Shown: positions 3,741 to 16,885, counted from the stretch's first letter. The stretch is DNA of 64,000 bases from Planctomycetota bacterium (GCA_965223265.1 OZ244999.1:480001-544000); one strand, 5' to 3'. The notes: generated by a model from the letters alone, not told the origin. A program made the numbers and translations.

Positions 3741-6700
3741 GTGCCTTCATCATTGACCGTCCCCGTGGGTCCACGCCATGGAGAAACTGTGAGCCAGCGC
3801 TCAACGCGACGAGAAGAATGGGACATCGACGCAGCCCTGCGGATCCTGCAGGCTTCCATCGATCCTTACATTTGGGATCAAGGGCAGGAGCTGTACCGGC
3901 GCGGCGCCGTCAAGGATTTCGCCATGTCGCAGGACGGCAACATTCGCGTGATCGTCCTTGATCCTCGCGATGCGCGGAACTTTTTCGTTAGCGTTCGACG
4001 CGAGCACGATGGCCGGATCGTCTCACATTGCGCGTGTCCGTATCGCTTGAACGGCCGATGTAGACATCAAGTTGTCGCACTCGAGTATTTGCGCGCGATA
4101 GCCGGTGGGGAGGCTCAACCAACCAGTGCCGCCGCCGCTGATGCTGCCGTCGAGTCGCCGCGCGTCAGTGGAGGCGACGTCAGTGATGCGGCGGGGAAAG
4201 CAGGGCCGGTACTCTACCGCCTATTTGACCCTCCATGCGACGTGGTGACAGCGGAGGACGGTTCGCTGCTGCGCCTTGTACTGCTATCGCTCGGCTCGGC
4301 CACGACGGCGCACCGTGTGGCGCTTCAGCTTTTCACCACGACTGGCTGGGGAGAAGTACGGACGCCGGAACTCGATCGCTGGATCGGCCGCGGAGATGTT
4401 GGGCCGCACCCGCGTGATTTGGCGCTTCGATCGACGCTTGCCGGGGATGGAGGCATTCGAAATGACGTCGATTCCGAGACGTTTGGGTATCTTCTGACTG
4501 TCGTCGCCGAGAGTTCCGCGCTGGTTGACCGATCGGGAAATGTGCTTGCTGTCTCACGCGATCCTTGGCGTCTGCGCACCGATGTGGAACGTTCAGGTGA
4601 GACTTCAATCCGCGTGCGTTTCTCGTGCGTCTTCCCAGGGCGCGAGTCGCGTCGATTCGAAGAGGTGGCGCTCGTCCCTTCGACCAGCGCGTGGATCCAA
4701 CTCGACAGTGGCGCGTTCCATCCCCTGATCGCAGCCGTACCGGGGCCGCTACTCGCTGAGGTGCAGGTCGAAGAGCTGAGTGAGATCGCGCCGCCCGAAT
4801 TGGACCAGTTCTTGATCAGCGGCGTGCATCAGCTCGAACGTTTGACTCCCGGCATGTTCTTCATAGAGCCCGGTCTGATTCGAGAGGTGGAAGGTGTAGA
4901 TAGCGCGCGCGTCCGGTTGAGCGCCATTGGCGACGAGTCTAGTGGAGGCTTTGCCGGTCAGCTTGAATTCCTCTACGGCGACGAATGGGTCGAGGCGCCG
5001 AGCGATCCAACGCCTTGGACGATCGATCAAGGCGGCAAGATCCACCGCTACCCTGCGGCGGGGCAGTCCCTCGCAAAGGCGCGACGTGAGCTCGAGAATG
5101 TCGGCTTCCGCCACGCAGATGGCGAATGGCGGCTCGAAGGGGAAGACGCGCTCGAGCGCGTGTTATCACAAGCGCCAGATTCGTTCGTCTCATTCGATCT
5201 GCCGCAGGAAGCAGCCGCGCGTGATTTTGTGAGTCGCGCACCACGCGTCCGTGTTGCGGTAGAGACGACGGACGAGAACGCAGATGGGACCCCGCAGTTG
5301 CGGCTTTCTCTTGAGCTGTTCGATGGCGATCGGCGACTCAGTTTTTCCACCGCTGAATTTGCTGAGCTCACTCCGGCCGGACGTCGAGGCTTCTTTCGCC
5401 TAGAAGACGAATCGATTGTGGATCCACGCCATCCAGGAGTGCGCGATCTCATCGAGCTGCTCGCCGCCGCCCACCGTTCAGGATCTGAACCGAGCCTCGA
5501 GGATGGGCGGCTCTGCCTTTCTGCGCCCGCGAGTGCAGTCGCGCTCATAGCCGACGCCAGCGATGAAGTGGATTTGGAACTTTCGCCGCGGGTCGCCCGT
5601 CTGTGTGAGAGGTTGAGCGGGCATCGGCTGGACGGGTCGGAAGAGATCGACGCATCTGGTTTTCAGGACAGCGTCGTGAAAACGCTGCGTGAGTATCAAC
5701 TCGCAGCCGTTGCATGGTTCGGGGCGCTCGCCGAGTGGGGGCTCGCCGGAGTGCTTGCTGACGAGATGGGACTCGGAAAGACTTTGATGACTCTTGCGCA
5801 CTTCTTCGGGCGCACGACAGCCGGCGCGCGCTCAGGAGAAGCGGCAGAGCCGGGCCATGCGGCGCTACCGGTGTTGGTCGTCTGCCCGACGAGCCTGGTC
5901 TTCAATTGGCTTGACGAGACGCAGCGATTTTTTCCAGAGGTGCGGACGACGTCGCTGCAGGGACTGCCGCGAGAGAAGCGCGAGGCGCTCCTCGGTTCTG
6001 ATACTGATATGATCGTGACCTCCTACGCGCTGATGAGACGCGACCGGGAGGCGTTGGAAGCGCTGCAGTTTCGTGCTGTAGTCCTCGACGAGGCCCAGCA
6101 TGTCAAGAACGCGGCGAGCCAGACGGCGAAGGCCGCGTTTGCGCTCCGGGCGCAGCAGCGCTGGGCGCTCACCGGCACGCCGATGGAAAACCATCTTGGC
6201 GAGATCTGGTCGATCTTCCGTTTTCTGTTGCCGGGATTCCTCGGTACGCAAGACGAGTTCGTCAAGGAATACCGAGAGCCCGCGGAGCGAGGCGACGACA
6301 CGGCTGTGACGCAGTTGCGACGGCGAGTGCGTCCCTTCATCTTGCGCCGCACCAAGACGGAGGTTTTGACGGATCTCCCTGAGCTGATCGAGCAGACGCG
6401 ACGGGTGCCGCTGTCGCCGCTGCAGCGTCAACTCTACGACGCGGAGTTGGCGGCTGCGCGCGAAGTCGTAGAGGGAGCTGAGGGGCCACAGGCGCGCATC
6501 AAGGTTCTCGCTGCGCTGACTCGCCTGCGGCAGATCTGCTGCGATCCGGGATTGATTCTTGACGACGAAGACCTCGCAACACTGCGAACGACTGAGGAGA
6601 CCGTCGTCAGCAGCAAGATGGAGCTACTCCTCGAGTTGCTTGAGGAGTGTATCGATGAACAGCATCGCGTCCTTCTTTTCAGTCAATTCACCAGCATGCT

Positions 6701-7115
6701 TGATCTCATCGAGTTGCGCCTCGACGAACGTAGCGTCGATCGCTGTCGACTCGATGGCGCAACACGCGATCGCGAGGCTCAGGTGCGGCGTTTTCAGGGC
6801 GATGGCGCAGTGCCAATCTTTCTCATCAGTCTCAAGGCTGGCGGCTACGGTCTCAATCTGACCGCGGCCGACATCGTGATTCTTTTCGATCCATGGTGGA
6901 ACCCGGCGACGGAAGCCCAGGCCGTGGCGAGAGCTCATCGCATGGGGCAGATGATGCCCGTGCATGTTCATAAGCTGGTGGCCGCAGACACCGTCGAGGA
7001 AAGAATCCAGGAGCTTCAGGAGACGAAACGAGACCTGGCCTCCCGTCTTCTCGAAACGGGTGAAGATCCGTTCGCGCAGCTGAATCTCGATACCTTGCGC
7101 GAGCTTTTCGCGTAA
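3741..7115 (+). CDS. SWIM zinc-finger SNF2-family helicase (start may be GTG 3789)
   Basis: CACP...CRH SWIM motif; LADEMGLGKT, DEAQ, LTGTPMEN, LKAGGYGLNL, DPWWNPA, RAHRMGQ. Confidence 0.95.
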   Translation: MPSSLTVPVGPRHGETVSQRSTRREEWDIDAALRILQASIDPYIWDQGQELYRRGAVKDFAMSQDGNIRVIVLDPRDARNFFVSVRREHDGRIVSHCACPYRLNGRCRHQVVALEYLRAIAGGEAQPTSAAAADAAVESPRVSGGDVSDAAGKAGPVLYRLFDPPCDVVTAEDGSLLRLVLLSLGSATTAHRVALQLFTTTGWGEVRTPELDRWIGRGDVGPHPRDLALRSTLAGDGGIRNDVDSETFGYLLTVVAESSALVDRSGNVLAVSRDPWRLRTDVERSGETSIRVRFSCVFPGRESRRFEEVALVPSTSAWIQLDSGAFHPLIAAVPGPLLAEVQVEELSEIAPPELDQFLISGVHQLERLTPGMFFIEPGLIREVEGVDSARVRLSAIGDESSGGFAGQLEFLYGDEWVEAPSDPTPWTIDQGGKIHRYPAAGQSLAKARRELENVGFRHADGEWRLEGEDALERVLSQAPDSFVSFDLPQEAAARDFVSRAPRVRVAVETTDENADGTPQLRLSLELFDGDRRLSFSTAEFAELTPAGRRGFFRLEDESIVDPRHPGVRDLIELLAAAHRSGSEPSLEDGRLCLSAPASAVALIADASDEVDLELSPRVARLCERLSGHRLDGSEEIDASGFQDSVVKTLREYQLAAVAWFGALAEWGLAGVLADEMGLGKTLMTLAHFFGRTTAGARSGEAAEPGHAALPVLVVCPTSLVFNWLDETQRFFPEVRTTSLQGLPREKREALLGSDTDMIVTSYALMRRDREALEALQFRAVVLDEAQHVKNAASQTAKAAFALRAQQRWALTGTPMENHLGEIWSIFRFLLPGFLGTQDEFVKEYREPAERGDDTAVTQLRRRVRPFILRRTKTEVLTDLPELIEQTRRVPLSPLQRQLYDAELAAAREVVEGAEGPQARIKVLAALTRLRQICCDPGLILDDEDLATLRTTEETVVSSKMELLLELLEECIDEQHRVLLFSQFTSMLDLIELRLDERSVDRCRLDGATRDREAQVRRFQGDGAVPIFLISLKAGGYGLNLTAADIVILFDPWWNPATEAQAVARAHRMGQMMPVHVHKLVAADTVEERIQELQETKRDLASRLLETGEDPFAQLNLDTLRELFA

Positions 7116-7132
7116 CCCTGCGGTCGAGCGCG

Positions 7133-7256
7133 GAGGCAGAGGCAGAGGCAGAGGCGGAGGCAGAGGCGGAAGCAGAGGCGGAGGCAGAGGCAGAGGCGGA
7201 AGCAGAGGCGGAGGCAGAGGCAGAGGCAGAGGCAGAGGCAGGCAGAGGCAGAGGCA
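7133..7256 (+). repeat. (GAGGCA/GAGGCG/GAAGCA)n microsatellite, leftmost tract
   Basis: About 21 hexamer units read directly; one truncated 4-nt unit near 7241. Confidence 0.97.
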
Positions 7257-7272
7257 CCTATGGTCCGACTGT

Positions 7273-7278
7273 TGTCAA
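7273..7278 (-). promoter_or_regulatory. Outward-facing consensus -35 hexamer (TTGACA) at the element's downstream end; present in all five copies
   Basis: tgtcaa on the + strand just inside the subterminal IR; IS110/IS1111 elements assemble junction promoters on circularisation; matching -10 not identified. Confidence 0.5.
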
Positions 7279-7326
7279 CGGGGGAGCTTTCTTTTCTTGA
7301 TTGTCTTCAATCCGACGTGGGGCAGT

Positions 7327-7503
7327 TGGGTTGCCTGGGGGTCCGGGGGGCGGCGGGTAGAGCGCCCCCGGGCTCTGTGCAGCCCGGAAGGTACCGCACG
7401 CGGGAGAGATCATTCTGGGTTGCCTGGGGGTCCGGGGGGCGGCGGGTAGAGCGCCCCCGGGCTCTGTGCAGCCCGGAAGGTACCGCACGCGGGAGAGATC
7501 ATT
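7327..7503. repeat. 89-bp direct tandem duplication in the IS non-coding end (also 10814-10990 and 14337-14513)
   Basis: TGGGTTGCCTGGGGGTCC...GGGAGAGATCATT starts at 7327 and again at 7416; single copy in IS copies 2 and 4. Confidence 0.95.
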
Positions 7504-7539
7504 TTCGTAGTAGTGCTGTGTTGTCTTTGGGCTGGCGGT

Positions 7540-7800
7540 AAAGAAGCCAAGTGTTCGGTTCGCTCTGAGCGCCGGGGCGGCAAAGCGCCTCGCGGCCAAC
7601 TCCTATGCGTGTCCGCTCTCTGGCGGATCACCTGATACTGCGTTCGCATCGCGGCAGGCGAACCGACAAGGACGGTTCCTTCTGAGAAGCACGGCGGCTT
7701 GGAAAGCCAGCCCAGCCTCTGCTCGAACGCGTCCTACAGTCGGCCAAGAATCCGAGTCAGCCCTGCAGGTCCCTCCGTTTGAGTTGGGTTGGTGTGTTGA
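7540..7800 (-). ncRNA. Putative bridge RNA/seekRNA of the IS element (boundaries approximate; identical copies at offsets +1690, +3487, +5213, +7010)
   Basis: Non-coding region downstream of tnp, as in IS1111-type elements; stem 7663-7678/7725-7743 encloses an internal loop with arms GCAGAGG and UGCUUCU that match the two target strands. Confidence 0.7.
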
Positions 7801-7820
7801 GCCTGTTGCTGGTCATCGAA

Positions 7821-8948
7821 TTAGGAACTGAGCCGTGCCAAGGGAGGTGGTACGTCAGTGCTGAGGAATCGCCAGAGCGAAATGAGCAGCTTTCTGGCTA
7901 AGGCGACGATTCCCGCCTTGCGCGAGCGCTTGGTGCCTGGCCCATAGCGCTGGCAGAACCATTGAGATAGCTGGCTCTGTGGCTGAAAGCGCAGCCAGTT
8001 CCAGGCAGCCTGAACCATGAGTGTGCGTACACGCCCGTTGCCAGCTTTGCTGATTCCTTGCTCGCGTTTGATGTTGTCACTGCGCCAGGGAACGCTCACC
8101 ATTCCTGCCAGGGCTCCGATTTCACGGCGATTGTTGAACTTACGCCAGAAGAACTCGTAGTAGAGCGTTGCGGCAGTGTACATGCCGATGCCGCGCAGGC
8201 TGTTGAGCTTGCCGACTTTCTTGCAGGCCTCCGGCGAGTTGGTGAGCGTTTCGAGAGTCTCGGCCTCAATCTCAGCGATTTGCTCTTCGACAAGCTGCAG
8301 CCGAGCGTGCTCGCGTAGCATGCCTGCCTTGGCATGCGGGGGGATCGCAGATCCATCGGGGCCGCGTAACGTGTCGATGATTTCAGGCAGCTTCTTGAGG
8401 CGGGCGCGGATGCCGAACTTGATCAACATGTCCTTGAGGCGATTGATGTGCCGAGTGCGATCCTTGACAAGGCGCTGACGCTCTCTTGGCAGGCGGCGCT
8501 CGTCCTCGATCTGCACGCTCGGCACATTGACAACGCGCAGTGGGCTGCGCGACGAGCCGTGGTGACGGATCAAAAGATCGAGCATCTTCTCTCCGTCGAG
8601 GCGATCGGTCTTTTGACGCTTGGCGCGCTGATCGACCTCGCAGCTAGCCGGGTCAATGACGGCGTTGTGGATCCCACTGTCTACGAGCCAGCGGTGCAGC
8701 CAGAATCCATCGCGGCCAGCTTCGTAGCAGCTCACCACCTCAGCTTGCGGCGAAAGGCGCAAGCGCGCCTTGGCTTTCGAGAGCTCTTCCTGAAACTCCG
8801 CAAGGTTTCCCGCCTCGACCGTCCTGCAGCGCGGCCGGCTCCCCGCAACACCGCTGACGAGCTTCCACGTTGTGTTGCCAACGTCAATTGCCACGTGAAG
8901 AACTTCGCTCATGTCGGTAAGCTGTCCCTGGGTCGTTCTTGTTGCCAT
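7821..8948 (-). CDS. IS110-family DEDD transposase/recombinase, copy 1
   Basis: AIDV, CYEAG, KTDRLD (RuvC-like DEDD), SLRGIG, PWRSD (conserved Ser), GISKAGNGRVR, ALARKL; AGGAG RBS. Confidence 0.97.
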   Translation of the reverse strand: MATRTTQGQLTDMSEVLHVAIDVGNTTWKLVSGVAGSRPRCRTVEAGNLAEFQEELSKAKARLRLSPQAEVVSCYEAGRDGFWLHRWLVDSGIHNAVIDPASCEVDQRAKRQKTDRLDGEKMLDLLIRHHGSSRSPLRVVNVPSVQIEDERRLPRERQRLVKDRTRHINRLKDMLIKFGIRARLKKLPEIIDTLRGPDGSAIPPHAKAGMLREHARLQLVEEQIAEIEAETLETLTNSPEACKKVGKLNSLRGIGMYTAATLYYEFFWRKFNNRREIGALAGMVSVPWRSDNIKREQGISKAGNGRVRTLMVQAAWNWLRFQPQSQLSQWFCQRYGPGTKRSRKAGIVALARKLLISLWRFLSTDVPPPLARLSS

Positions 8949-8999
8949 CTCTTCACTCCTAAAAAAGACTATGGTACACGAGGACGGCCCATAGTTTCT

Positions 9000-9035
9000 G
9001 AGGCGGAGGCAGAGGCAGAGGCAGAGGCAGAGGCA
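9000..9035 (+). repeat. Microsatellite spacer, 6 x GAGGCR
   Basis: Counted directly. Confidence 0.97.
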
Positions 9036-10689
9036 CCTATGGTCCGACTGTTGTCAACGGGGGAGCTTTCTTTTCTTGATTGTCTTCAATCCGACGTGGG
9101 GCAGTTGGGTTGCCTGGGGGTCCGGGGGGCGGCGGGTAGAGCGCCCCCGGGCTCTGTGCAGCCCGGAAGGTACCGCACGCGGGAGAGATCATTTTCGTAG
9201 TAGTGCTGTGTTGTCTTTGGGCTGGCGGTAAAGAAGCCAAGTGTTCGGTTCGCTCTGAGCGCCGGGGCGGCAAAGCGCCTCGCGGCCAACTCCTATGCGT
9301 GTCCGCTCTCTGGCGGATCACCTGATACTGCGTTCGCATCGCGGCAGGCGAACCGACAAGGACGGTTCCTTCTGAGAAGCACGGCGGCTTGGAAAGCCAG
9401 CCCAGCCTCTGCTCGAACGCGTCCTACAGTCGGCCAAGAATCCGAGTCAGCCCTGCAGGTCCCTCCGTTTGAGTTGGGTTGGTGTGTTGAGCCTGTTGCT
9501 GGTCATCGAATTAGGAACTGAGCCGTGCCAACGGAGGTGGTACGTCAGTGCTGAGGAATCGCCAGAGCGAAATGAGCAGCTTTCTGGCTAAGGCGACGAT
9601 TCCCGCCTTGCGCGAGCGCTTGGTGCCTGGCCCATAGCGCTGGCAGAACCATTGAGATAGCTGGCTCTGTGGCTGAAAGCGCAGCCAGTTCCAGGCAGCC
9701 TGAACCATGAGTGTGCGTACACGCCCGTTGCCAGCTTTGCTGATTCCTTGCTCGCGTTTGATGTTGTCACTGCGCCAGGGAACGCTCACCATTCCTGCCA
9801 GGGCTCCGATTTCACGGCGATTGTTGAACTTACGCCAGAAGAACTCGTAGTAGAGCGTTGCGGCAGTGTACATGCCGATGCCGCGCAGGCTGTTGAGCTT
9901 GCCGACTTTCTTGCAGGCCTCCGGCGAGTTGGTGAGCGTTTCGAGAGTCTCGGCCTCAATCTCAGCGATTTGCTCTTCGACAAGCTGCAGCCGAGCGTGC
10001 TCGCGTAGCATGCCTGCCTTGGCATGCGGGGGGATCGCAGATCCATCGGGGCCGCGTAACGTGTCGATGATTTCAGGCAGCTTCTTGAGGCGGGCGCGGA
10101 TGCCGAACTTGATCAACATGTCCTTGAGGCGATTGATGTGCCGAGTGCGATCCTTGACAAGGCGCTGACGCTCTCTTGGCAGGCGGCGCTCGTCCTCGAT
10201 CTGCACGCTCGGCACGTTGACAACGCGCAGTGGGCTGCGCGACGAGCCGTGGTGACGGATCAAAAGATCGAGCATCTTCTCTCCGTCGAGGCGATCGGTC
10301 TTTTGACGCTTGGCGCGCTGATCGACCTCGCAGCTAGCCGGGTCAATGACGGCGTTGTGGATCCCACTGTCTACGAGCCAACGGTGCAGCCAGAATCCAT
10401 CGCGGCCAGCTTCGTAGCAGCTCACCACCTCAGCTTGCGGCGAAAGGCGCAAGCGCGCCTTGGCTTTCGAGAGCTCTTCCTGAAACTCCGCAAGGTTTCC
10501 CGCCTCGACCGTCCTGCAGCGCGGCCGGCTCCCCGCAACACCGCTGACGAGCTTCCACGTTGTGTTGCCAACGTCAATTGCCACGTGAAGAACTTCGCTC
10601 ATGTCGGTAAGCTGTCCCTGGGTCGTTCTTGTTGCCATCTCTTCACTCCTAAAAAAGACTATGGTACACGAGGACGGCCCATAGTTTCT
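9036..10689 (-). mobile_element. IS110-family element, copy 2, short allele (1654 bp)
   Basis: Same ends as copy 1; lacks the 89-bp duplication; synonymous SNPs at 9532, 10216 and 10381. Confidence 0.95.
9511..10638 (-). CDS. IS110-family transposase, copy 2
   Basis: Protein identical to copy 1 (375 aa). Confidence 0.97.
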   Translation of the reverse strand: MATRTTQGQLTDMSEVLHVAIDVGNTTWKLVSGVAGSRPRCRTVEAGNLAEFQEELSKAKARLRLSPQAEVVSCYEAGRDGFWLHRWLVDSGIHNAVIDPASCEVDQRAKRQKTDRLDGEKMLDLLIRHHGSSRSPLRVVNVPSVQIEDERRLPRERQRLVKDRTRHINRLKDMLIKFGIRARLKKLPEIIDTLRGPDGSAIPPHAKAGMLREHARLQLVEEQIAEIEAETLETLTNSPEACKKVGKLNSLRGIGMYTAATLYYEFFWRKFNNRREIGALAGMVSVPWRSDNIKREQGISKAGNGRVRTLMVQAAWNWLRFQPQSQLSQWFCQRYGPGTKRSRKAGIVALARKLLISLWRFLSTDVPPPLARLSS

Positions 10690-10743
10690 GAGGCGGAGGC
10701 AGAGGCAGAGGCAGAGGCAGAGGCGGAGGCAGAGGCAGAGGCA
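10690..10743 (+). repeat. Microsatellite spacer, 9 x GAGGCR
   Basis: Counted directly. Confidence 0.97.
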
Positions 10744-12486
10744 CCTATGGTCCGACTGTTGTCAACGGGGGAGCTTTCTTTTCTTGATTGTCTTCAATCC
10801 GACGTGGGGCAGTTGGGTTGCCTGGGGGTCCGGGGGGCGGCGGGTAGAGCGCCCCCGGGCTCTGTGCAGCCCGGAAGGTACCGCACGCGGGAGAGATCAT
10901 TCTGGGTTGCCTGGGGGTCCGGGGGGCGGCGGGTAGAGCGCCCCCGGGCTCTGTGCAGCCCGGAAGGTACCGCACGCGGGAGAGATCATTTTCGTAGTAG
11001 TGCTGTGTTGTCTTTGGGCTGGCGGTAAAGAAGCCAAGTGTTCGGTTCGCTCTGAGCGCCGGGGCGGCAAAGCGCCTCGCGGCCAACTCCTATGCGTGTC
11101 CGCTCTCTGGCGGATCACCTGATACTGCGTTCGCATCGCGGCAGGCGAACCGACAAGGACGGTTCCTTCTGAGAAGCACGGCGGCTTGGAAAGCCAGCCC
11201 AGCCTCTGCTCGAACGCGTCCTACAGTCGGCCAAGAATCCGAGTCAGCCCTGCAGGTCCCTCCGTTTGAGTTGGGTTGGTGTGTTGAGCCTGTTGCTGGT
11301 CATCGAATTAGGAACTGAGCCGTGCCAAGGGAGGTGGTACGTCAGTGCTGAGGAATCGCCAGAGCGAAATGAGCAGCTTTCTGGCTAAGGCGACGATTCC
11401 CGCCTTGCGCGAGCGCTTGGTGCCTGGCCCATAGCGCTGGCAGAACCATTGAGATAGCTGGCTCTGTGGCTGAAAGCGCAGCCAGTTCCAGGCAGCCTGA
11501 ACCATGAGTGTGCGTACACGCCCGTTGCCAGCTTTGCTGATTCCTTGCTCGCGTTTGATGTTGTCACTGCGCCAGGGAACGCTCACCATTCCTGCCAGGG
11601 CTCCGATTTCACGGCGATTGTTGAACTTACGCCAGAAGAACTCGTAGTAGAGCGTTGCGGCAGTGTACATGCCGATGCCGCGCAGGCTGTTGAGCTTGCC
11701 GACTTTCTTGCAGGCCTCCGGCGAGTTGGTGAGCGTTTCGAGAGTCTCGGCCTCAATCTCAGCGATTTGCTCTTCGACAAGCTGCAGCCGAGCGTGCTCG
11801 CGTAGCATGCCTGCCTTGGCATGCGGGGGGATCGCAGATCCATCGGGGCCGCGTAACGTGTCGATGATTTCAGGCAGCTTCTTGAGGCGGGCGCGGATGC
11901 CGAACTTGATCAACATGTCCTTGAGGCGATTGATGTGCCGAGTGCGATCCTTGACAAGGCGCTGACGCTCTCTTGGCAGGCGGCGCTCGTCCTCGATCTG
12001 CACGCTCGGCACATTGACAACGCGCAGTGGGCTGCGCGACGAGCCGTGGTGACGGATCAAAAGATCGAGCATCTTCTCTCCGTCGAGGCGATCGGTCTTT
12101 TGACGCTTGGCGCGCTGATCGACCTCGCAGCTAGCCGGGTCAATGACGGCGTTGTGGATCCCACTGTCTACGAGCCAGCGGTGCAGCCAGAATCCATCGC
12201 GGCCAGCTTCGTAGCAGCTCACCACCTCAGCTTGCGGCGAAAGGCGCAAGCGCGCCTTGGCTTTCGAGAGCTCTTCCTGAAACTCCGCAAGGTTTCCCGC
12301 CTCGACCGTCCTGCAGCGCGGCCGGCTCCCCGCAACACCGCTGACGAGCTTCCACGTTGTGTTGCCAACGTCAATTGCCACGTGAAGAACTTCGCTCATG
12401 TCGGTAAGCTGTCCCTGGGTCGTTCTTGTTGCCATCTCTTCACTCCTAAAAAAGACTATGGTACACGAGGACGGCCCATAGTTTCT
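10744..12486 (-). mobile_element. IS110-family element, copy 3, long allele (1743 bp)
   Basis: Same ends, duplication and SNP state as copy 1. Confidence 0.95.
11308..12435 (-). CDS. IS110-family transposase, copy 3
   Basis: Identical 375-aa protein. Confidence 0.97.
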   Translation of the reverse strand: MATRTTQGQLTDMSEVLHVAIDVGNTTWKLVSGVAGSRPRCRTVEAGNLAEFQEELSKAKARLRLSPQAEVVSCYEAGRDGFWLHRWLVDSGIHNAVIDPASCEVDQRAKRQKTDRLDGEKMLDLLIRHHGSSRSPLRVVNVPSVQIEDERRLPRERQRLVKDRTRHINRLKDMLIKFGIRARLKKLPEIIDTLRGPDGSAIPPHAKAGMLREHARLQLVEEQIAEIEAETLETLTNSPEACKKVGKLNSLRGIGMYTAATLYYEFFWRKFNNRREIGALAGMVSVPWRSDNIKREQGISKAGNGRVRTLMVQAAWNWLRFQPQSQLSQWFCQRYGPGTKRSRKAGIVALARKLLISLWRFLSTDVPPPLARLSS

Positions 12487-12558
12487 GAGGCAGAGGCAGA
12501 GGCAGAGGCAGAGGCGGAGGCAGAGGCAGAGGCAGAGGCAGAGGCGGAGGCAGAGGCA
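12487..12558 (+). repeat. Microsatellite spacer, 12 x GAGGCR
   Basis: Counted directly. Confidence 0.97.
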
Positions 12559-14212
12559 CCTATGGTCCGACTGTTGTCAACGGGGGAGCTTTCTTTTCTT
12601 GATTGTCTTCAATCCGACGTGGGGCAGTTGGGTTGCCTGGGGGTCCGGGGGGCGGCGGGTAGAGCGCCCCCGGGCTCTGTGCAGCCCGGAAGGTACCGCA
12701 CGCGGGAGAGATCATTTTCGTAGTAGTGCTGTGTTGTCTTTGGGCTGGCGGTAAAGAAGCCAAGTGTTCGGTTCGCTCTGAGCGCCGGGGCGGCAAAGCG
12801 CCTCGCGGCCAACTCCTATGCGTGTCCGCTCTCTGGCGGATCACCTGATACTGCGTTCGCATCGCGGCAGGCGAACCGACAAGGACGGTTCCTTCTGAGA
12901 AGCACGGCGGCTTGGAAAGCCAGCCCAGCCTCTGCTCGAACGCGTCCTACAGTCGGCCAAGAATCCGAGTCAGCCCTGCAGGTCCCTCCGTTTGAGTTGG
13001 GTTGGTGTGTTGAGCCTGTTGCTGGTCATCGAATTAGGAACTGAGCCGTGCCAAGGGAGGTGGTACGTCAGTGCTGAGGAATCGCCAGAGCGAAATGAGC
13101 AGCTTTCTGGCTAAGGCGACGATTCCCGCCTTGCGCGAGCGCTTGGTGCCTGGCCCATAGCGCTGGCAGAACCATTGAGATAGCTGGCTCTGTGGCTGAA
13201 AGCGCAGCCAGTTCCAGGCAGCCTGAACCATGAGTGTGCGTACACGCCCGTTGCCAGCTTTGCTGATTCCTTGCTCGCGTTTGATGTTGTCACTGCGCCA
13301 GGGAACGCTCACCATTCCTGCCAGGGCTCCGATTTCACGGCGATTGTTGAACTTACGCCAGAAGAACTCGTAGTAGAGCGTTGCGGCAGTGTACATGCCG
13401 ATGCCGCGCAGGCTGTTGAGCTTGCCGACTTTCTTGCAGGCCTCCGGCGAGTTGGTGAGCGTTTCGAGAGTCTCGGCCTCAATCTCAGCGATTTGCTCTT
13501 CGACAAGCTGCAGCCGAGCGTGCTCGCGTAGCATGCCTGCCTTGGCATGCGGGGGGATCGCAGATCCATCGGGGCCGCGTAACGTGTCGATGATTTCAGG
13601 CAGCTTCTTGAGGCGGGCGCGGATGCCGAACTTGATCAACATGTCCTTGAGGCGATTGATGTGCCGAGTGCGATCCTTGACAAGGCGCTGACGCTCTCTT
13701 GGCAGGCGGCGCTCGTCCTCGATCTGCACGCTCGGCACGTTGACAACGCGCAGTGGGCTGCGCGACGAGCCGTGGTGACGGATCAAAAGATCGAGCATCT
13801 TCTCTCCGTCGAGGCGATCGGTCTTTTGACGCTTGGCGCGCTGATCGACCTCGCAGCTAGCCGGGTCAATGACGGCGTTGTGGATCCCACTGTCTACGAG
13901 CCAACGGTGCAGCCAGAATCCATCGCGGCCAGCTTCGTAGCAGCTCACCACCTCAGCTTGCGGCGAAAGGCGCAAGCGCGCCTTGGCTTTCGAGAGCTCT
14001 TCCTGAAACTCCGCAAGGTTTCCCGCCTCGACCGTCCTGCAGCGCGGCCGGCTCCCCGCAACACCGCTGACGAGCTTCCACGTTGTGTTGCCAACGTCAA
14101 TTGCCACGTGAAGAACTTCGCTCATGTCGGTAAGCTGTCCCTGGGTCGTTCTTGTTGCCATCTCTTCACTCCTAAAAAAGACTATGGTACACGAGGACGG
14201 CCCATAGTTTCT
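12559..14212 (-). mobile_element. IS110-family element, copy 4, short allele (1654 bp)
   Basis: Same ends; no duplication; shares the SNPs at 13739 and 13904 with copy 2. Confidence 0.95.
13034..14161 (-). CDS. IS110-family transposase, copy 4
   Basis: Identical 375-aa protein. Confidence 0.97.
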   Translation of the reverse strand: MATRTTQGQLTDMSEVLHVAIDVGNTTWKLVSGVAGSRPRCRTVEAGNLAEFQEELSKAKARLRLSPQAEVVSCYEAGRDGFWLHRWLVDSGIHNAVIDPASCEVDQRAKRQKTDRLDGEKMLDLLIRHHGSSRSPLRVVNVPSVQIEDERRLPRERQRLVKDRTRHINRLKDMLIKFGIRARLKKLPEIIDTLRGPDGSAIPPHAKAGMLREHARLQLVEEQIAEIEAETLETLTNSPEACKKVGKLNSLRGIGMYTAATLYYEFFWRKFNNRREIGALAGMVSVPWRSDNIKREQGISKAGNGRVRTLMVQAAWNWLRFQPQSQLSQWFCQRYGPGTKRSRKAGIVALARKLLISLWRFLSTDVPPPLARLSS

Positions 14213-14266
14213 GAGGCGGAGGCAGAGGCAGAGGCAGAGGCAGAGGCGGAGGCAGAGGCAGAGGCA
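14213..14266 (+). repeat. Microsatellite spacer, 9 x GAGGCR (identical to 10690-10743)
   Basis: Counted directly. Confidence 0.97.
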
Positions 14267-16009
14267 CCTATGGTCCGACTGTTGTCAACGGGGGAGCTTT
14301 CTTTTCTTGATTGTCTTCAATCCGACGTGGGGCAGTTGGGTTGCCTGGGGGTCCGGGGGGCGGCGGGTAGAGCGCCCCCGGGCTCTGTGCAGCCCGGAAG
14401 GTACCGCACGCGGGAGAGATCATTCTGGGTTGCCTGGGGGTCCGGGGGGCGGCGGGTAGAGCGCCCCCGGGCTCTGTGCAGCCCGGAAGGTACCGCACGC
14501 GGGAGAGATCATTTTCGTAGTAGTGCTGTGTTGTCTTTGGGCTGGCGGTAAAGAAGCCAAGTGTTCGGTTCGCTCTGAGCGCCGGGGCGGCAAAGCGCCT
14601 CGCGGCCAACTCCTATGCGTGTCCGCTCTCTGGCGGATCACCTGATACTGCGTTCGCATCGCGGCAGGCGAACCGACAAGGACGGTTCCTTCTGAGAAGC
14701 ACGGCGGCTTGGAAAGCCAGCCCAGCCTCTGCTCGAACGCGTCCTACAGTCGGCCAAGAATCCGAGTCAGCCCTGCAGGTCCCTCCGTTTGAGTTGGGTT
14801 GGTGTGTTGAGCCTGTTGCTGGTCATCGAATTAGGAACTGAGCCGTGCCAAGGGAGGTGGTACGTCAGTGCTGAGGAATCGCCAGAGCGAAATGAGCAGC
14901 TTTCTGGCTAAGGCGACGATTCCCGCCTTGCGCGAGCGCTTGGTGCCTGGCCCATAGCGCTGGCAGAACCATTGAGATAGCTGGCTCTGTGGCTGAAAGC
15001 GCAGCCAGTTCCAGGCAGCCTGAACCATGAGTGTGCGTACACGCCCGTTGCCAGCTTTGCTGATTCCTTGCTCGCGTTTGATGTTGTCACTGCGCCAGGG
15101 AACGCTCACCATTCCTGCCAGGGCTCCGATTTCACGGCGATTGTTGAACTTACGCCAGAAGAACTCGTAGTAGAGCGTTGCGGCAGTGTACATGCCGATG
15201 CCGCGCAGGCTGTTGAGCTTGCCGACTTTCTTGCAGGCCTCCGGCGAGTTGGTGAGCGTTTCGAGAGTCTCGGCCTCAATCTCAGCGATTTGCTCTTCGA
15301 CAAGCTGCAGCCGAGCGTGCTCGCGTAGCATGCCTGCCTTGGCATGCGGGGGGATCGCAGATCCATCGGGGCCGCGTAACGTGTCGATGATTTCAGGCAG
15401 CTTCTTGAGGCGGGCGCGGATGCCGAACTTGATCAACATGTCCTTGAGGCGATTGATGTGCCGAGTGCGATCCTTGACAAGGCGCTGACGCTCTCTTGGC
15501 AGGCGGCGCTCGTCCTCGATCTGCACGCTCGGCACATTGACAACGCGCAGTGGGCTGCGCGACGAGCCGTGGTGACGGATCAAAAGATCGAGCATCTTCT
15601 CTCCGTCGAGGCGATCGGTCTTTTGACGCTTGGCGCGCTGATCGACCTCGCAGCTAGCCGGGTCAATGACGGCGTTGTGGATCCCACTGTCTACGAGCCA
15701 GCGGTGCAGCCAGAATCCATCGCGGCCAGCTTCGTAGCAGCTCACCACCTCAGCTTGCGGCGAAAGGCGCAAGCGCGCCTTGGCTTTCGAGAGCTCTTCC
15801 TGAAACTCCGCAAGGTTTCCCGCCTCGACCGTCCTGCAGCGCGGCCGGCTCCCCGCAACACCGCTGACGAGCTTCCACGTTGTGTTGCCAACGTCAATTG
15901 CCACGTGAAGAACTTCGCTCATGTCGGTAAGCTGTCCCTGGGTCGTTCTTGTTGCCATCTCTTCACTCCTAAAAAAGACTATGGTACACGAGGACGGCCC
16001 ATAGTTTCT
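14267..16009 (-). mobile_element. IS110-family element, copy 5, long allele (1743 bp)
   Basis: Same ends and duplication as copies 1 and 3. Confidence 0.95.
14831..15958 (-). CDS. IS110-family transposase, copy 5
   Basis: Identical 375-aa protein from ATG 15958; the ORF-track extension to 16438 is spurious. Confidence 0.95.
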   Translation of the reverse strand: MATRTTQGQLTDMSEVLHVAIDVGNTTWKLVSGVAGSRPRCRTVEAGNLAEFQEELSKAKARLRLSPQAEVVSCYEAGRDGFWLHRWLVDSGIHNAVIDPASCEVDQRAKRQKTDRLDGEKMLDLLIRHHGSSRSPLRVVNVPSVQIEDERRLPRERQRLVKDRTRHINRLKDMLIKFGIRARLKKLPEIIDTLRGPDGSAIPPHAKAGMLREHARLQLVEEQIAEIEAETLETLTNSPEACKKVGKLNSLRGIGMYTAATLYYEFFWRKFNNRREIGALAGMVSVPWRSDNIKREQGISKAGNGRVRTLMVQAAWNWLRFQPQSQLSQWFCQRYGPGTKRSRKAGIVALARKLLISLWRFLSTDVPPPLARLSS

Positions 16010-16075
16010 GAGGCAGAGGCGGAGGCAGAGGCAGAGGCAGAGGCAGAAACAGCGGCAGAGGCAGAAAAGAGGCGG
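16010..16075 (+). repeat. Microsatellite, rightmost tract (GAGGCR degenerating to GAAACA/GCGGCA)
   Basis: Read directly. Confidence 0.93.
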
Positions 16076-16091
16076 GTTGTTAGGGCGTGCG

Positions 16092-16217
16092 CGCGGCGGC
16101 GGCATTGTCGATGGTAACCGAAGCACAGCCGGCCTCAAGGGTGCCCTCGCTGCGCTCGGCGCTTCGCGCGCTTGACCCCGTCTGTGCTTCGGTTGGCGGC
16201 AGTGAAACGCCGCCGCG
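16092..16217 (+). other. Long nested inverted repeat / hairpin upstream of the four-helix-bundle gene
   Basis: CGCGGCGGCG (16092-16101) pairs with CGCCGCCGCG (16208-16217); AACCGAAGCACAG (16116-16128) pairs with CTGTGCTTCGGTT (16182-16194); inner TCAAG/CTTGA. Confidence 0.8.
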
Positions 16218-16264
16218 TCGGGCGTGCGGCGAGAGTTCACGGGGCCGTTGACCGGAGTCTTCTC

Positions 16265-16588
16265 ATGAGCTTTCTCGCTTTGGATCACTCTGTTGGCATC
16301 GTTCGTCAGCTGCGTCCGCTTGTAGCGTCTGTGCGTCGTCACGACTCGAGGCTCGCTGCGCAGCTGCGCGACGCAGGCTCTTCGGTGGCGCTCAACCTCG
16401 GCGAGGGCAATCGGCGTCAGGGTCGTGACCGCGGACACCTTTGGCGCATTGCTTCAGGCAGCGCTGAAGAGGTTCGCACGGCGCTGCGTGTTGCCGAAGC
16501 GTGGGGCTACGTCGATGCAGCGGAGACAACTGCGGTGCTTGCGGACATCGATCGGCTGCAGGCAATGCTCTGGAAACTGACGCGCTGA
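16265..16588 (+). CDS. Four helix bundle protein (23S rRNA IVP / TIGR02436-like)
   Basis: LAAQLRDAGSSVALNLGEG...IASGSAEEVRTALRVAEAWGY matches the family QL.RA..S...N.AEG...A.GS..E pattern; GGAG RBS at 16254. Confidence 0.88.
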   Translation: MSFLALDHSVGIVRQLRPLVASVRRHDSRLAAQLRDAGSSVALNLGEGNRRQGRDRGHLWRIASGSAEEVRTALRVAEAWGYVDAAETTAVLADIDRLQAMLWKLTR

Positions 16589-16644: not shown

Positions 16645-16885
16645 AGAGGCGGAGACAGAACCAGATACAGAGTCAGAAACAGAGGCGGAGACAGAATACA
16701 GAACCAGATACAGAGTCAGAAGCAGAAACAGAAACGGATACAGAAACGGATACGGAGGCAGAAGCGATTACCGGCACGCCCACGCCCACGCCCACGCCCA
16801 CGCCCACGCCCACGCCCACGCCCACGCACTCACAAACGCCCACGCACTCACAAACGCCCACGCAAACGCCCTCGCCCTCGCCCAC
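16645..16885 (+). repeat. Degenerate GAnnCR hexamer tract followed by a (CACGCC)n microsatellite
   Basis: GAGACA/GAACCA/GATACA/GAAACA units at 16645-16766; CACGCC units at 16775-16885. Confidence 0.9.

Follow-up and report, generated by a model that had tools for sequence, protein, structure and literature searches.

How several copies of one insertion sequence (IS) came to lie side by side in a single microsatellite is the question raised by a locus of a Planctomycetota bacterium, analysed here within a window of 64,000 nt (OZ244999.1:480001-544000). The known targets of IS110/IS1111 elements (REP elements, attC sites, transposon ends and short unique sequences) are split on insertion. A recent preprint takes this splitting as the explanation of why such elements need no target immunity.

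Organisation of the Array

In the assembly, five co-oriented IS copies of 1743, 1654, 1743, 1654 and 1743 bp occupy a single (GAGGCA)n tract between the stop codon of a SNF2 helicase gene (3741–7115) and a gene of the 23S_rRNA_IVP family (16172–16588). All five are on the minus strand (copies 1 to 5 at 7257–8999, 9036–10689, 10744–12486, 12559–14212 and 14267–16009), the transposase-sense left end of copy 1 being at position 8999 and its right end at 7257. On the plus strand, the tract begins with 124 nt on the left (7133–7256; about 21 units, with GAGGCG and GAAGCA variants), continues as spacers of 36, 54, 72 and 54 nt, or 6, 9, 12 and 9 hexamers (9000–9035, 10690–10743, 12487–12558 and 14213–14266), and degenerates over 66 nt on the right (16010–16075). 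The junction sequence is GAGGCA|CCTATGG at the left of every copy and CATAGTTTCT|GAGGC at the right (window plus strand), and the 375 aa transposase is 100% identical in all five array copies and in 8/8 copies across the genome. The initial annotation had described five co-oriented copies with identical 375 aa transposases, in one junction register and separated by 6, 9, 12 and 9 hexamers; coordinates and sequence comparison bear out the copies, and the register and spacing hold at every array junction.

The copies are of two kinds. Copies 1, 3 and 5 (A variant, 1743 bp) are mutually identical and carry a tandem duplication of 89 bp (two units; 7327–7503, 10814–10990 and 14337–14513), which lies in the non-coding region, 3′ of the RNA described below and some 70 nt short of the right end. 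This duplication and two private substitutions define the A variant, which occurs only in the array. Copies 2 and 4 (B variant, 1654 bp) are without one 89 bp unit and show a 1 nt difference between them, copy 4 having the A-type base at element position 497. Copy 2 is identical to dispersed copies at genome positions 743506–745159 and 904588–906241, and the B lineage is also the source of the three dispersed copies.

The Element and Its Transposase

The transposase gene of copy 1 (7821–8948, minus strand) and its identical counterparts in copies 2–5 (9511–10638, 11308–12435, 13034–14161 and 14831–15958, minus strand) specify a protein with the Pfam domains DEDD_Tnp_IS110 (PF01548, E 4e-10) and Transposase_20 (PF02371, E 4e-14), each over its cut-off. 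The NCBIfam equivalog NF033542, 'IS110 family RNA-guided transposase', was matched at 194.4 bits (cut-off 140). The protein shares 26% identity with that of IS4321 over 264 aa (residues 76–330; pairwise E 6e-14) and matches the IS621 structure weakly and in its C-terminal part only (E 0.0027). The serine of a WRSD sequence aligns with that of YESG in IS621 and with the threonine of STG in IS4321, the following glycine being aspartate here; this serine may be the catalytic residue of the IS110-family G--P----S(t)G motif.

Non-coding sequence amounts to 51 nt on the 5′ side of the gene versus 475 nt in the B variant and 564 nt in the A variant on the 3′ side. Subterminal inverted repeats (CTATGGGCCG / CGGACCATAG) extend over 10 bp with one mismatch, which is below the 11–13 bp given for IS1111 elements but inside the range of 7–17 bp of Durrant et al. 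(PMC11208160). Beyond them are terminal extensions of 5 nt on the left (AGAAA) and 1 nt on the right (G), if the ends are set by the hexamer period; the 6–7 nt (left) and 3 nt (right) reported for IS1111 elements (PMC11187229) are reached only when flanking repeat bases are counted as element. The transposase, at 375 aa, is likewise outside the 330–350 aa of that report. Relatives of the element end in AGATA (left) and AAG (right). Its identification as an autonomous IS110-family IS with IS1111-type architecture, the type already named on first inspection, is supported by the DEDD transposase and the long 3′ non-coding region; subterminal inverted repeats are present but short, and the extension lengths and protein size deviate.

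Insertion Specificity across the Genome

The genome is a single contig of 9.18 Mb and carries three further full copies, eight in total. All eight are in GAGRCR hexamer tracts, at 4/4 independent loci, in one register and one orientation; no target bases are duplicated, and in every copy the flanks carry on the hexamer period. One copy is in a GAGACA context. Tracts of (GAGRCR)n with n ≥ 3 make up only about 4.8 kb of the 9.18 Mb (about 0.05%), yet hold all four full-copy loci, which excludes chance. The genomic copies are at least 99.8% identical and are, therefore, recent. Copies in unrelated, non-repeat sequence had been named as the finding that would speak against targeting, but the other full copies (3/3) are at GAGRCR units. 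The two short remnants give a divided answer, as one is beside two GAGRCR units in that same register and the other beside about one GAGRCR-like unit only. None of 40 related genomes carried the element, and a search of them for an empty allele found none, synteny being lost 3′ of the SNF2 orthologue.

Intact candidate targets (13-mers) number 83 in 30 loci of the genome, against 1.6 expected. The array locus is the richest, with 26 of the 83, distributed at two to seven per tract segment: seven in the left tract, three, four and six in spacers 1, 2 and 3, further sites in spacer 4, and two in the right tract. The expectation that target sequence survives on both flanks of an insertion agrees with these intact sites, which occur in the left and right tracts as well as in each spacer (three to six per spacer).

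The GAGRCR tracts are intergenic and strongly strand-asymmetric (purine/pyrimidine-rich). A second, unrelated IS110-family element (25% identity) is found in the same type of tract and carries a triplication of about 198 bp.

A Predicted Guide RNA

A structured RNA 3′ of the transposase gene is common to more than 100 distant relatives. By nhmmer, the non-coding region is collinear with that of relatives of no more than 47% protein identity, and an alignment of 37 sequences gave a consensus fold with compensatory changes in 11 of 26 pairs. A covariance model built on 36 relatives only, with this element left out, matched all five copies at full length on the transposase strand (45.3 bits, E 5.3e-10), predicting a seekRNA/bridge-RNA-like element at 7575–7736, 9265–9426, 11062–11223, 12788–12949 and 14585–14746 (minus strand). 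The same model gave 70 matches in 80 metagenome loci, never more than one to a locus, and 45 in 44 other genome loci, some of which have two.

The predicted fold is an outer stem around an internal loop, with a hairpin interrupting the loop. Folded as a single sequence, the RNA is no more stable than shuffled versions (z −0.66), and there the guide strands pair together. A search of the integrated copy for a sigma-70-like promoter found none. A second conserved module has the 3′ strand GCAUAGGAGUU (copy 2, 9288–9298, minus strand), which matches the right end CATAGG and then AG, the dinucleotide with which the left end begins; in relatives the module reads GGAUAGAAG and the right end CATAGAAG.

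Guide Strands and Target

Both strands of the internal loop match the hexamer repeat, over 8 nt on one side and by YCUC together with the first four element bases on the other. The 5′ strand carries the T guide GAGCAGAGGCUG (9403–9414 in copy 2; 7713–7724, 11200–11211, 12926–12937 and 14723–14734 in copies 1, 3, 4 and 5; minus strand), eight bases of which are complementary to the right flank GCCTCTGC. The 3′ strand carries the B guide GUGCUUCUCAGAAG (9369–9382 in copy 2; 7679–7692, 11166–11179, 12892–12905 and 14689–14702 in copies 1, 3, 4 and 5; minus strand), in the sense of the left junction YCTC|AGAA. The repeat 8-mer fell inside the homologous 12 nt loop in only 16 of 20,000 shuffles.

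Relatives show the same correspondence. Where the right end could be located (n = 29), the reverse complement of the T strand matches at least seven of the first nine flank bases in 27 relatives, a level reached by 4 of 588 mismatched control pairs; the score of the present element is 8/9, and an exact 7–9-mer stands directly after CATAGA(A/G) in many more loci. In 101 of 129 elements, the B strand closes with the same four bases that open the left end, among them the non-consensus pairs AGAA/AGAA (seven cases) and CGAA, AGAC and GGAT (one each); the pair here is AGAA/AGAAAC. Against the left flank the B-guide match is short, with three Watson-Crick pairs and one wobble before AGAA. The right-junction dinucleotide is TG in all copies, while the T guide would fit best with AG, and one T-guide position is mismatched because TG, not AG, adjoins the right end. 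The in silico order of the guides, T (5′ of the hairpin) and then B (3′), both covarying with the flanks of relatives, is that reported for IS1111-family seekRNAs (PMC11187229).

RNA guidance had been noted at the outset as a property of IS110/IS1111 recombinases, and an RNA with hexamer-matching guide strands was found in the 3′ non-coding region. RNA-guided targeting of the microsatellite is well supported, because the loop strands match the repeat and a model made without the element finds the RNA in 5/5 copies.

Proposed Mechanism

The RNA would be made and bound by the transposase. Its T guide would pair with the transposase-sense strand of the right flank, (T)GCCTCTGC, and its B guide would have the sense of the left flank and the first four element bases, YCTC|AGAA. 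Both half-sites would belong to one hexamer, (TGCCTC)n in transposase sense or (GAGGCA)n on the plus strand of the window, so that any two neighbouring units could form a target, and the two guide strands are mutually complementary because the half-sites are identical. An insertion would consume one site and leave intact sites on either side. With the repeat as target and sites spared, the element would be confined to GAGRCR tracts in one orientation and register, and a long tract could hold several copies. A circle is the putative intermediate, and the exact positions of strand exchange are likewise putative. Comparison with relatives and with ISPpu9 suggests that the AG dinucleotide belongs to the left end of the element, and the right-junction dinucleotide (TG here) appears to be target-derived.

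We consider it probable that this is an RNA-guided, hexamer-targeting IS, and that the array arose from a few targeted insertions together with at least one event in which a two-copy unit was duplicated or moved.

Growth of the Array and Other Explanations

The A-B-A-B-A order of the variants and the two identical 54 bp spacers are less suggestive of five single insertions than of a history with at least one duplication or two-copy move. The initial annotation had seen the tract as a landing pad that builds arrays; reusable target sites do persist, but five successive insertions are not the only fit, a duplication or two-copy move accounting equally well for these features and for the confinement of the A variant to the array. 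An explanation with close to an even chance of being correct goes further, and holds that targeting is real but that single insertions gave only two or three copies, the array having grown mainly by block copying in place, either by unequal homologous recombination between identical copies or tracts, or by recombinase excision and re-insertion of B, the 54 nt spacer and A. Besides the variant order, it draws on the identity of spacers 2 and 4 over 54 nt including their GAGGCG positions (spacers 1 and 3 differ), on the restriction of three identical A copies to the array while the B lineage is also dispersed, and on the summed tract length of 406 bp, which exceeds the longest uninterrupted GARRCR tract of the genome (312 bp). 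Tandem cargo repeats were reported in 3 of 96 colonies in another preprint, and ISPpu9 yields several kinds of circle (PMC12288879). Block copying is opposed by the single base that separates copies 2 and 4, copy 2 having the state of the dispersed copies, and by the unequal lengths of spacer 1 (36 nt) and spacer 3 (72 nt), so that a simple crossover between A copies would need an additional change in tract length. The locus also holds the most candidate sites still remaining in the genome, so several hits would be expected by targeting alone.

That the target is picked by the protein, or by an unusual structure of purine/pyrimidine-tract DNA, with the RNA match incidental, is very unlikely. 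The strand asymmetry of the tracts, the unrelated element (25% identity) in tracts of the same kind and the shortness of the B-guide match could be read in this way, but the guide strands covary with the flanks over many distinct targets in relatives, the match sits in exactly the homologous loop (16/20,000 by chance), the copy in GAGACA context is still compatible with the guide by G-T wobble (7/9), and experiments on IS1111-family members have demonstrated RNA dependence (PMC11187229).

Inflation or creation of the array by the assembler, fewer copies being real, is very unlikely. Identical 1.7 kb repeats with microsatellites between them are hard to assemble, none of the short contigs from public runs spans a tract, and in run X1 two within-element contigs disagree in depth (189.5 versus 45.6, the flank having 12.1). 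However, the genome is one contig, and the copies can be told apart by two length variants, four substitutions and four spacers of three lengths. In run X2, a within-element contig of 1531 nt has a depth of 83 against 10.7 for a flank contig of 3476 nt (7.8-fold; eight copies assembled) and the 89 bp unit a depth of 113 (10.6-fold; 11 units assembled), a weak hint only, because contig depth is not copy number. Non-specific insertion followed by selective loss of copies outside tracts would suit intergenic, probably neutral tracts, but is extremely unlikely given a register and orientation kept to the base in 8/8 copies, the far greater extent of neutral intergenic DNA than the 0.05% in tracts, and copies at least 99.8% identical and so recent.

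Beyond the preferred reading of an RNA-guided, hexamer-targeting IS with few insertions and at least one two-copy duplication or move, a wider one is possible, although as a whole we think it doubtful. It would combine a guide set to a tandem repeat, with the tract as a self-renewing landing pad that accumulates arrays; growth of arrays both through single insertions and through transfer of several copies as one unit; convergence of two unrelated IS110-family lineages on the same hexamer tracts; flanking of a 42-member 23S_IVP gene family by such tracts; and mutually complementary guide strands, a constraint undescribed for seekRNAs or bridge RNAs.

Comparison with Known Systems

The nearest named comparators are the seekRNA elements of the IS1111 family, ISEc11, ISPa11, ISKpn4 and ISPst6 (Siddiquee et al. 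2024, PMC11187229). Shared with these are a DEDD transposase, a long non-coding region 3′ of its gene, subterminal inverted repeats, a specific target used in a single orientation with flanks matching the RNA, and an RNA in which the segment complementary to the top strand is 5′ of that complementary to the bottom strand (PMC11187229). The present element differs in its tandem-hexamer target, identical half-sites, mutually complementary guides and the intact targets left behind (in silico here), and in its 375 aa transposase (26% identity to IS4321) and extensions of 5 and 1 nt.

Bridge RNA recombination by IS621 and the IS110 group is reportedly also the subject of Hiraizumi et al. 2024 (PMC11208158). 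Through its internal loops, the IS621 bridge RNA recognises the target and the element ends on both strands, around a shared core dinucleotide (Durrant et al. 2024, PMC11208160). The second conserved module here resembles the donor-binding loop of IS621 in repeating the right end plus AG, but the present element has its RNA at the 3′ end, carries the guides in the opposite order and is only marginally similar in protein. The target of IS621 is REP elements, and in the available text of Durrant et al. (PMC11208160) the terms 'microsatellite' and 'tandem repeat' are absent. ISPpu9, ISPpu10 and ISPa11, which also target REP, similarly use an abundant intergenic repeat (PMC12288879), giving many safe sites per genome, and ISPpu9 has AG at both ends, as do the relatives of the present element (PMC12288879). 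A REP, however, is a single palindromic unit that insertion splits, whereas the hexamer units are tandem, so that targets persist beside each insertion.

Tandem IS110 modules are already known from a 2026 preprint on expanded IS110 loci, with tandem complete modules and tandem non-coding units by the transposase gene (bioRxiv 10.64898/2026.08.14.744561); the 89 bp duplication here and the triplication of about 198 bp in the second IS family are comparable. The word 'microsatellite' is absent from the main text of that preprint, as available, and a literature search found no description of a microsatellite target for IS110/IS1111 elements. Sequence-specific insertion into simple tandem repeats is described for eukaryotic elements, namely Waldo, Mino, Kibi, Koshi and Dong, the MINE-1 helitrons and the Micron MITEs (PMC3812793). 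Those are retrotransposons or other DNA transposons, and their targeting is ascribed to a protein endonuclease, with no RNA guide (PMC3812793).

Significance

A tandem-repeat target offers many sites per tract, and the tract survives insertion. Identical 1.7 kb direct repeats accumulate side by side and can drive amplification, deletion and the formation of multi-copy circles. The element is also a natural test case for an RNA-guided recombinase with guide strands able to pair together, and for tolerance of a mismatched core position (AG in the element versus TG in the target). An engineering use is also suggested, in which bridge or seek RNAs would be directed to microsatellites to integrate several copies. 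In a bacterium, too, microsatellites can offer mobile DNA a safe harbour; until now this role had been described for eukaryotic elements.

Five Copies in One Hexamer Tract

Five co-oriented copies of the element, all with the transposase ORF on the minus strand, occupy a single (GAGGCA)n tract bounded by the stop codon of a SNF2 helicase gene and a 23S_rRNA_IVP-family gene. Copies 1 (7257-8999), 3 (10744-12486) and 5 (14267-16009) represent a 1743 bp variant (A), and copies 2 (9036-10689) and 4 (12559-14212) a 1654 bp variant (B). The 375-aa ORF is identical in all five. The A copies show no differences among themselves and carry an 89 bp tandem duplication and two private substitutions; the B copies have a single 89 bp unit and are one base apart from each other. 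All substitutions are silent.

Every junction in the array reads GAGGCA/CCTATGG ... CATAGTTTCT/GAGGC, where the slash marks the junction. The four (GAGGCA)n spacers (9000-9035, 10690-10743, 12487-12558 and 14213-14266) are 36, 54, 72 and 54 nt long, or 6, 9, 12 and 9 hexamers, and spacers 2 and 4 are identical. The initial annotation had described these copies, junctions and spacers, and was right in every detail checked. The spacer lengths are all multiples of three hexamers (18 bp).

Where the two 89 bp units meet (7410-7420, and likewise in copies 3 and 5), the sequence in transposase orientation is CCCAGAATG. The duplication creates the pentamer CAGAA at this point, the same bases as are found at the left junction of the element and in the 3′ part of its B guide (see below), and this may be the footprint of a recombinase-mediated half-site event, or chance.

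Transposase and Classification

The transposase carries the DEDD_Tnp_IS110 and Transposase_20 domains and passes the NCBI equivalog model 'IS110 family RNA-guided transposase'. Over 264 residues it shares 26% identity with the transposase of IS4321 from plasmid R751, a member of the IS1111 group (pairwise E 6e-14), and it matches the solved IS621 transposase weakly, in the C-terminal part only. In transposase orientation, the gene has 51 nt of non-coding DNA upstream and 475 or 564 nt downstream, and the subterminal inverted repeats are CTATGGGCCG and CGGACCATAG. A long region downstream of the transposase gene and subterminal inverted repeats are described as the architecture of the IS1111 group (PMC11187229; PMC11208160). 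The long downstream region agrees with the layout seen here; the inverted repeats, 10 bp with one mismatch, fall within the range of 7-17 bp given in PMC11208160 and short of the 11-13 bp otherwise given for the group. The terminal extensions, as defined by the insertions, are 5 and 1 nt, whereas those described in PMC11187229 are 6-7 and 3 nt, and the protein of 375 aa exceeds the 330-350 aa given there. Judged by its sequence, the element belongs to the IS110 family as a distant member, and has an IS1111-type layout and a conserved, predicted guide RNA.

Distribution in the Genome and among Relatives

The genome is a single contig of 9,179,496 bp (60.8% G+C). BLASTN against it returned three further full copies (743506-745159, 904588-906241 and 5868346-5869999) and two short right-end remnants. 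The three full copies are all within hexamer tracts, with register and orientation relative to the tract strand unchanged; the units are GAGGCA/GAGGCG at two of them, while the remaining copy has GAGACA and GAGACG on either side. One remnant adjoins GAGGCG GAGACA units, and the other lies beside only about one GAGRCR-like unit. Tracts of at least three GAGRCR units number 112 and together make up 0.05% of the genome (about 4.8 kb). The initial annotation had proposed that copies in unrelated non-repeat sequence would refute tract targeting; since all three dispersed full copies sit in such rare tracts, the genome search does not refute it. The unit just past the left end (transposase orientation) is a GAGRCG variant in five of the eight full copies.

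Intact candidate sites of the form YCTC/TGYCTCTGC number 83, in 30 loci, against 1.6 expected. The idea that the element itself makes the tracts was rejected, as there are about 110 (GAGRCR)n tracts of at least three units and only four of the 30 candidate-site loci are occupied.

A public sequencing run (X6) with a different organism label and from a different study contains two contigs of 151 nt that match the element at 99% or better and align to window 7259-7323 and 14658-14808; one of them continues into sequence that differs from the flank in the window. A copy of the element, or of a near-identical one, may exist elsewhere.

Relatives were taken as the best 80 of 190 matches among genome contigs and the best 80 of 297 among metagenome contigs. 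Identity does not exceed 49% in either set, whose nearest members come from betaproteobacteria, Pirellulales and other MAGs, so that covariation was studied in distant relatives only. A hexamer tract at the element junction was found in none of these 160 loci; 18 have a short perfect tandem repeat of some kind away from the junction. The transposase was not found, at E≤1e-20, in 40 related genomes. SNF2 orthologues were detected in three of five related genomes, and downstream of the two inspected (57% and 54% identity) there is neither a tract nor a 23S_rRNA_IVP-family gene; no empty allele of the array locus was found among these related genomes.

A Conserved Predicted RNA Downstream of the Transposase Gene

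A search of Rfam with window 7100-10800 (E≤1) matched no family, so the RNA is not filed under any curated family. By nhmmer, the 3′ non-coding region is weakly and collinearly similar to its counterpart in relatives. The RNAalifold consensus of a 37-sequence alignment contains an outer stem, an internal loop that a hairpin interrupts, and a second conserved module, also a hairpin, with compensatory changes in 11 of the 26 consensus pairs. When built on the 36 relatives, with the element itself left out, a covariance model matches all five copies over its full length and in the direction of the transposase gene (45.3 bits, E 5.3e-10). Of 80 metagenome loci, 70 contain a single match to this model; a further 44 genome loci yield 45 matches, with two at some loci. 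Nearly all follow the transposase gene and share its orientation. Given this spread and near-constant position, the predicted RNA belongs to the conserved features of this element clade. Four relatives' loci (L013, L033, L052 and L072) hold a second match, on the opposite strand in two cases, a sign of adjacent or nested copies, or of orphan RNA genes.

In relatives, the second module has GGAUAGAAG as its 3′ strand, and the right end of the element is CATAGAAG; the corresponding strand here is GCAUAGGAG, with CATAGG at the right end and AG at the start of the left end. As this strand echoes the element ends, it looks like a donor-reading strand. A promoter scan of one integrated copy detected no promoter-like sites, and one terminator-like site on the wrong strand.

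Putative Guide Strands Match the Flanks

The two strands of the internal loop, 5′ (T) and 3′ (B), are the putative target guides. In relatives, T reads as the reverse complement of whatever DNA adjoins the element on its right, as with the flanks CCGCCGTT, TCTTACTGT, CGCCCACC, CAGACGTT and GGCCGAATT. At least seven of the first nine flank bases are matched in 27 of the 29 relatives with a located right end, compared with 4 of 588 control pairs in which guide and flank came from different elements. Seven of the 36 aligned relatives do not enter this score, as a CATAGRAR right end followed by 12 nt of flank could not be located in them. The nine-position score superseded a stricter one requiring contiguous matches from base 1 (16/29 vs 2/588) and an earlier inverted-repeat search. 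In a wider exact-match test (115 RNA matches, 113 used after two on the minus strand were dropped), a T/flank match of at least 7 nt is missing in 43 of the 113, many of them on contigs ending within 100-400 nt.

The B strand has the sense of the left junction, consisting of a few flank bases and then the element's own first four. In 101 of 129 elements, B ends in the same four bases with which the left end starts, non-consensus pairs among them (AGAA/AGAA, n=7; CGAA, AGAC and GGAT, n=1 each). Most of the 28 non-matches are accounted for by about 20 loci in which the left-end pattern picks the wrong TATG. In the flank part of B, 2.8 of five bases are matched, against 1.3 in controls.

In the element described here, T is GAGCAGAGGCUG, the complement of which contains GCCTCTGC and so covers eight of the first nine positions in the right flank (TGCCTCTGC). 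For B, which is GUGCUUCUCAGAAG, the left junction is ...CCTC/AGAAAC, giving three Watson-Crick pairs and one U-G wobble, followed by AGAA. For the copy in GAGACA context, T scores 7/9 with one G-T wobble position, and B forms four Watson-Crick pairs. When the non-coding region was shuffled 20000 times, an 8-mer of the repeat, on the right strand, fell within the homologous 12-nt loop 16 times and at any position in the region 1728 times. The T-then-B order is that of the seekRNAs described for the IS1111 family (PMC11187229). RNA-guided specificity for a hexamer microsatellite is thus well supported by comparison of predicted guides with their flanks.

Relatives carry AG at both junctions, as does ISPpu9 (PMC12288879); the element here has AG at the left junction and TG at the right. 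The simplest reading is that AG would be part of the left end and the right-junction dinucleotide the target's own. Two relatives, L079 and L052, have AA at the right junction only, suggesting that this dinucleotide is inherited from the target. An AG in place of the right-junction TG would let the T guide pair one base further.

Growth of the Array

The array locus holds by far the most candidate sites in the genome, so repeated hits are expected from targeting alone. In the variant tree, copy 4 is nearest the root and the A lineage and the dispersed lineage form two branches; the array locus was therefore probably colonised before the others. The A-B-A-B-A order, the identical spacers 2 and 4, and the confinement of the A variant to the array point to a copied block, and the odds on at least one block-copy step are about even. 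The copied block would be B, 54 nt and A (3451 bp), moved by unequal recombination or as a two-copy circle. The unequal lengths of spacers 1 and 3 and the one-base difference between copies 2 and 4 speak against a simple crossover; at that base, copy 2 has the same state as the three dispersed copies. Ancestral tract reconstruction from the GAGGCG/GAGGCA spacer pattern does not decide between serial insertion and duplication.

Mis-assembly of the array has a small probability. Logan contigs of two runs with the same organism label break at every tract. In one run (X2), contig depth is 83 inside the element, 113 in the 89 bp unit and 10.7 in unique flank, and the ratios of 7.8 and 10.6 compare with 8 copies and 11 units assembled, though contig depth is not copy number; under the same caveat, contig depths of the other run (X1) are inconsistent.

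Other Occupants and Neighbours of Hexamer Tracts

A second IS110-family element is found within GAGRCR-type tracts outside the window (genome positions 402083-404170, 5604924-5608244 and 5870050-5871720). It encodes a 358-aa transposase, about 25% identical to that of the first and on the purine-rich strand of the tract, and has a 494-nt 3′ non-coding region and 11 bp inverted repeats (ATGAGAAGGCC/GGCCTTCTCAT). One of its loci is a tandem pair, at another only 50 bp separate it from a copy of the first element, and one copy has an end region of about 198 bp present three times over.

The 23S_rRNA_IVP-family (four-helix-bundle) gene has 42 tblastn matches across the genome, 35 of them no more than 1 kb from a GANNCR tract; such tracts number 186 and total 12 kb. 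The gene in the window (16172-16588) has tracts on either side (16010-16075 and 16650-16885). Between the first of these and the gene is a 96 bp sequence (16080-16175) with 42 copies in the genome, 20 of which are within 500 bp of a hexamer tract, and several variants of it occur in public-run contigs. The genome is rich in hexamer microsatellites (perfect, at least four units; by canonical unit, AAACGC 45, ACGCCC 41, ACACGC 34, AGAGGC 10, and others), and tracts of unlike units often abut, as at 16650-16885.

Consequences of a Periodic Target

Microsatellite-specific elements are known from eukaryotes (PMC3812793). The open literature searched yielded no bacterial IS reported to target a microsatellite; target logos or bridge-RNA tables in supplements could include a repeat-targeting element.

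Both half-sites of the target are the same repeat, and for this reason T is complementary to B (window 9369-9414, minus strand). In the minimum-free-energy fold of the single sequence, AGAGGC pairs with GCUUCU (one G-U), closing the loop.

A 2026 preprint (bioRxiv 10.64898/2026.08.14.744561) reports 437 tandem complete IS110 modules and 468 tandem non-coding units, and describes insertion as not regenerating the target. The case here departs from that description. Candidate sites remain in every tract segment of the array, with seven in the left tract, 3, 4, 6 and 4 in spacers 1-4, and two in the right tract, so the proposal of the initial annotation that a periodic target survives on both flanks of an insertion holds.
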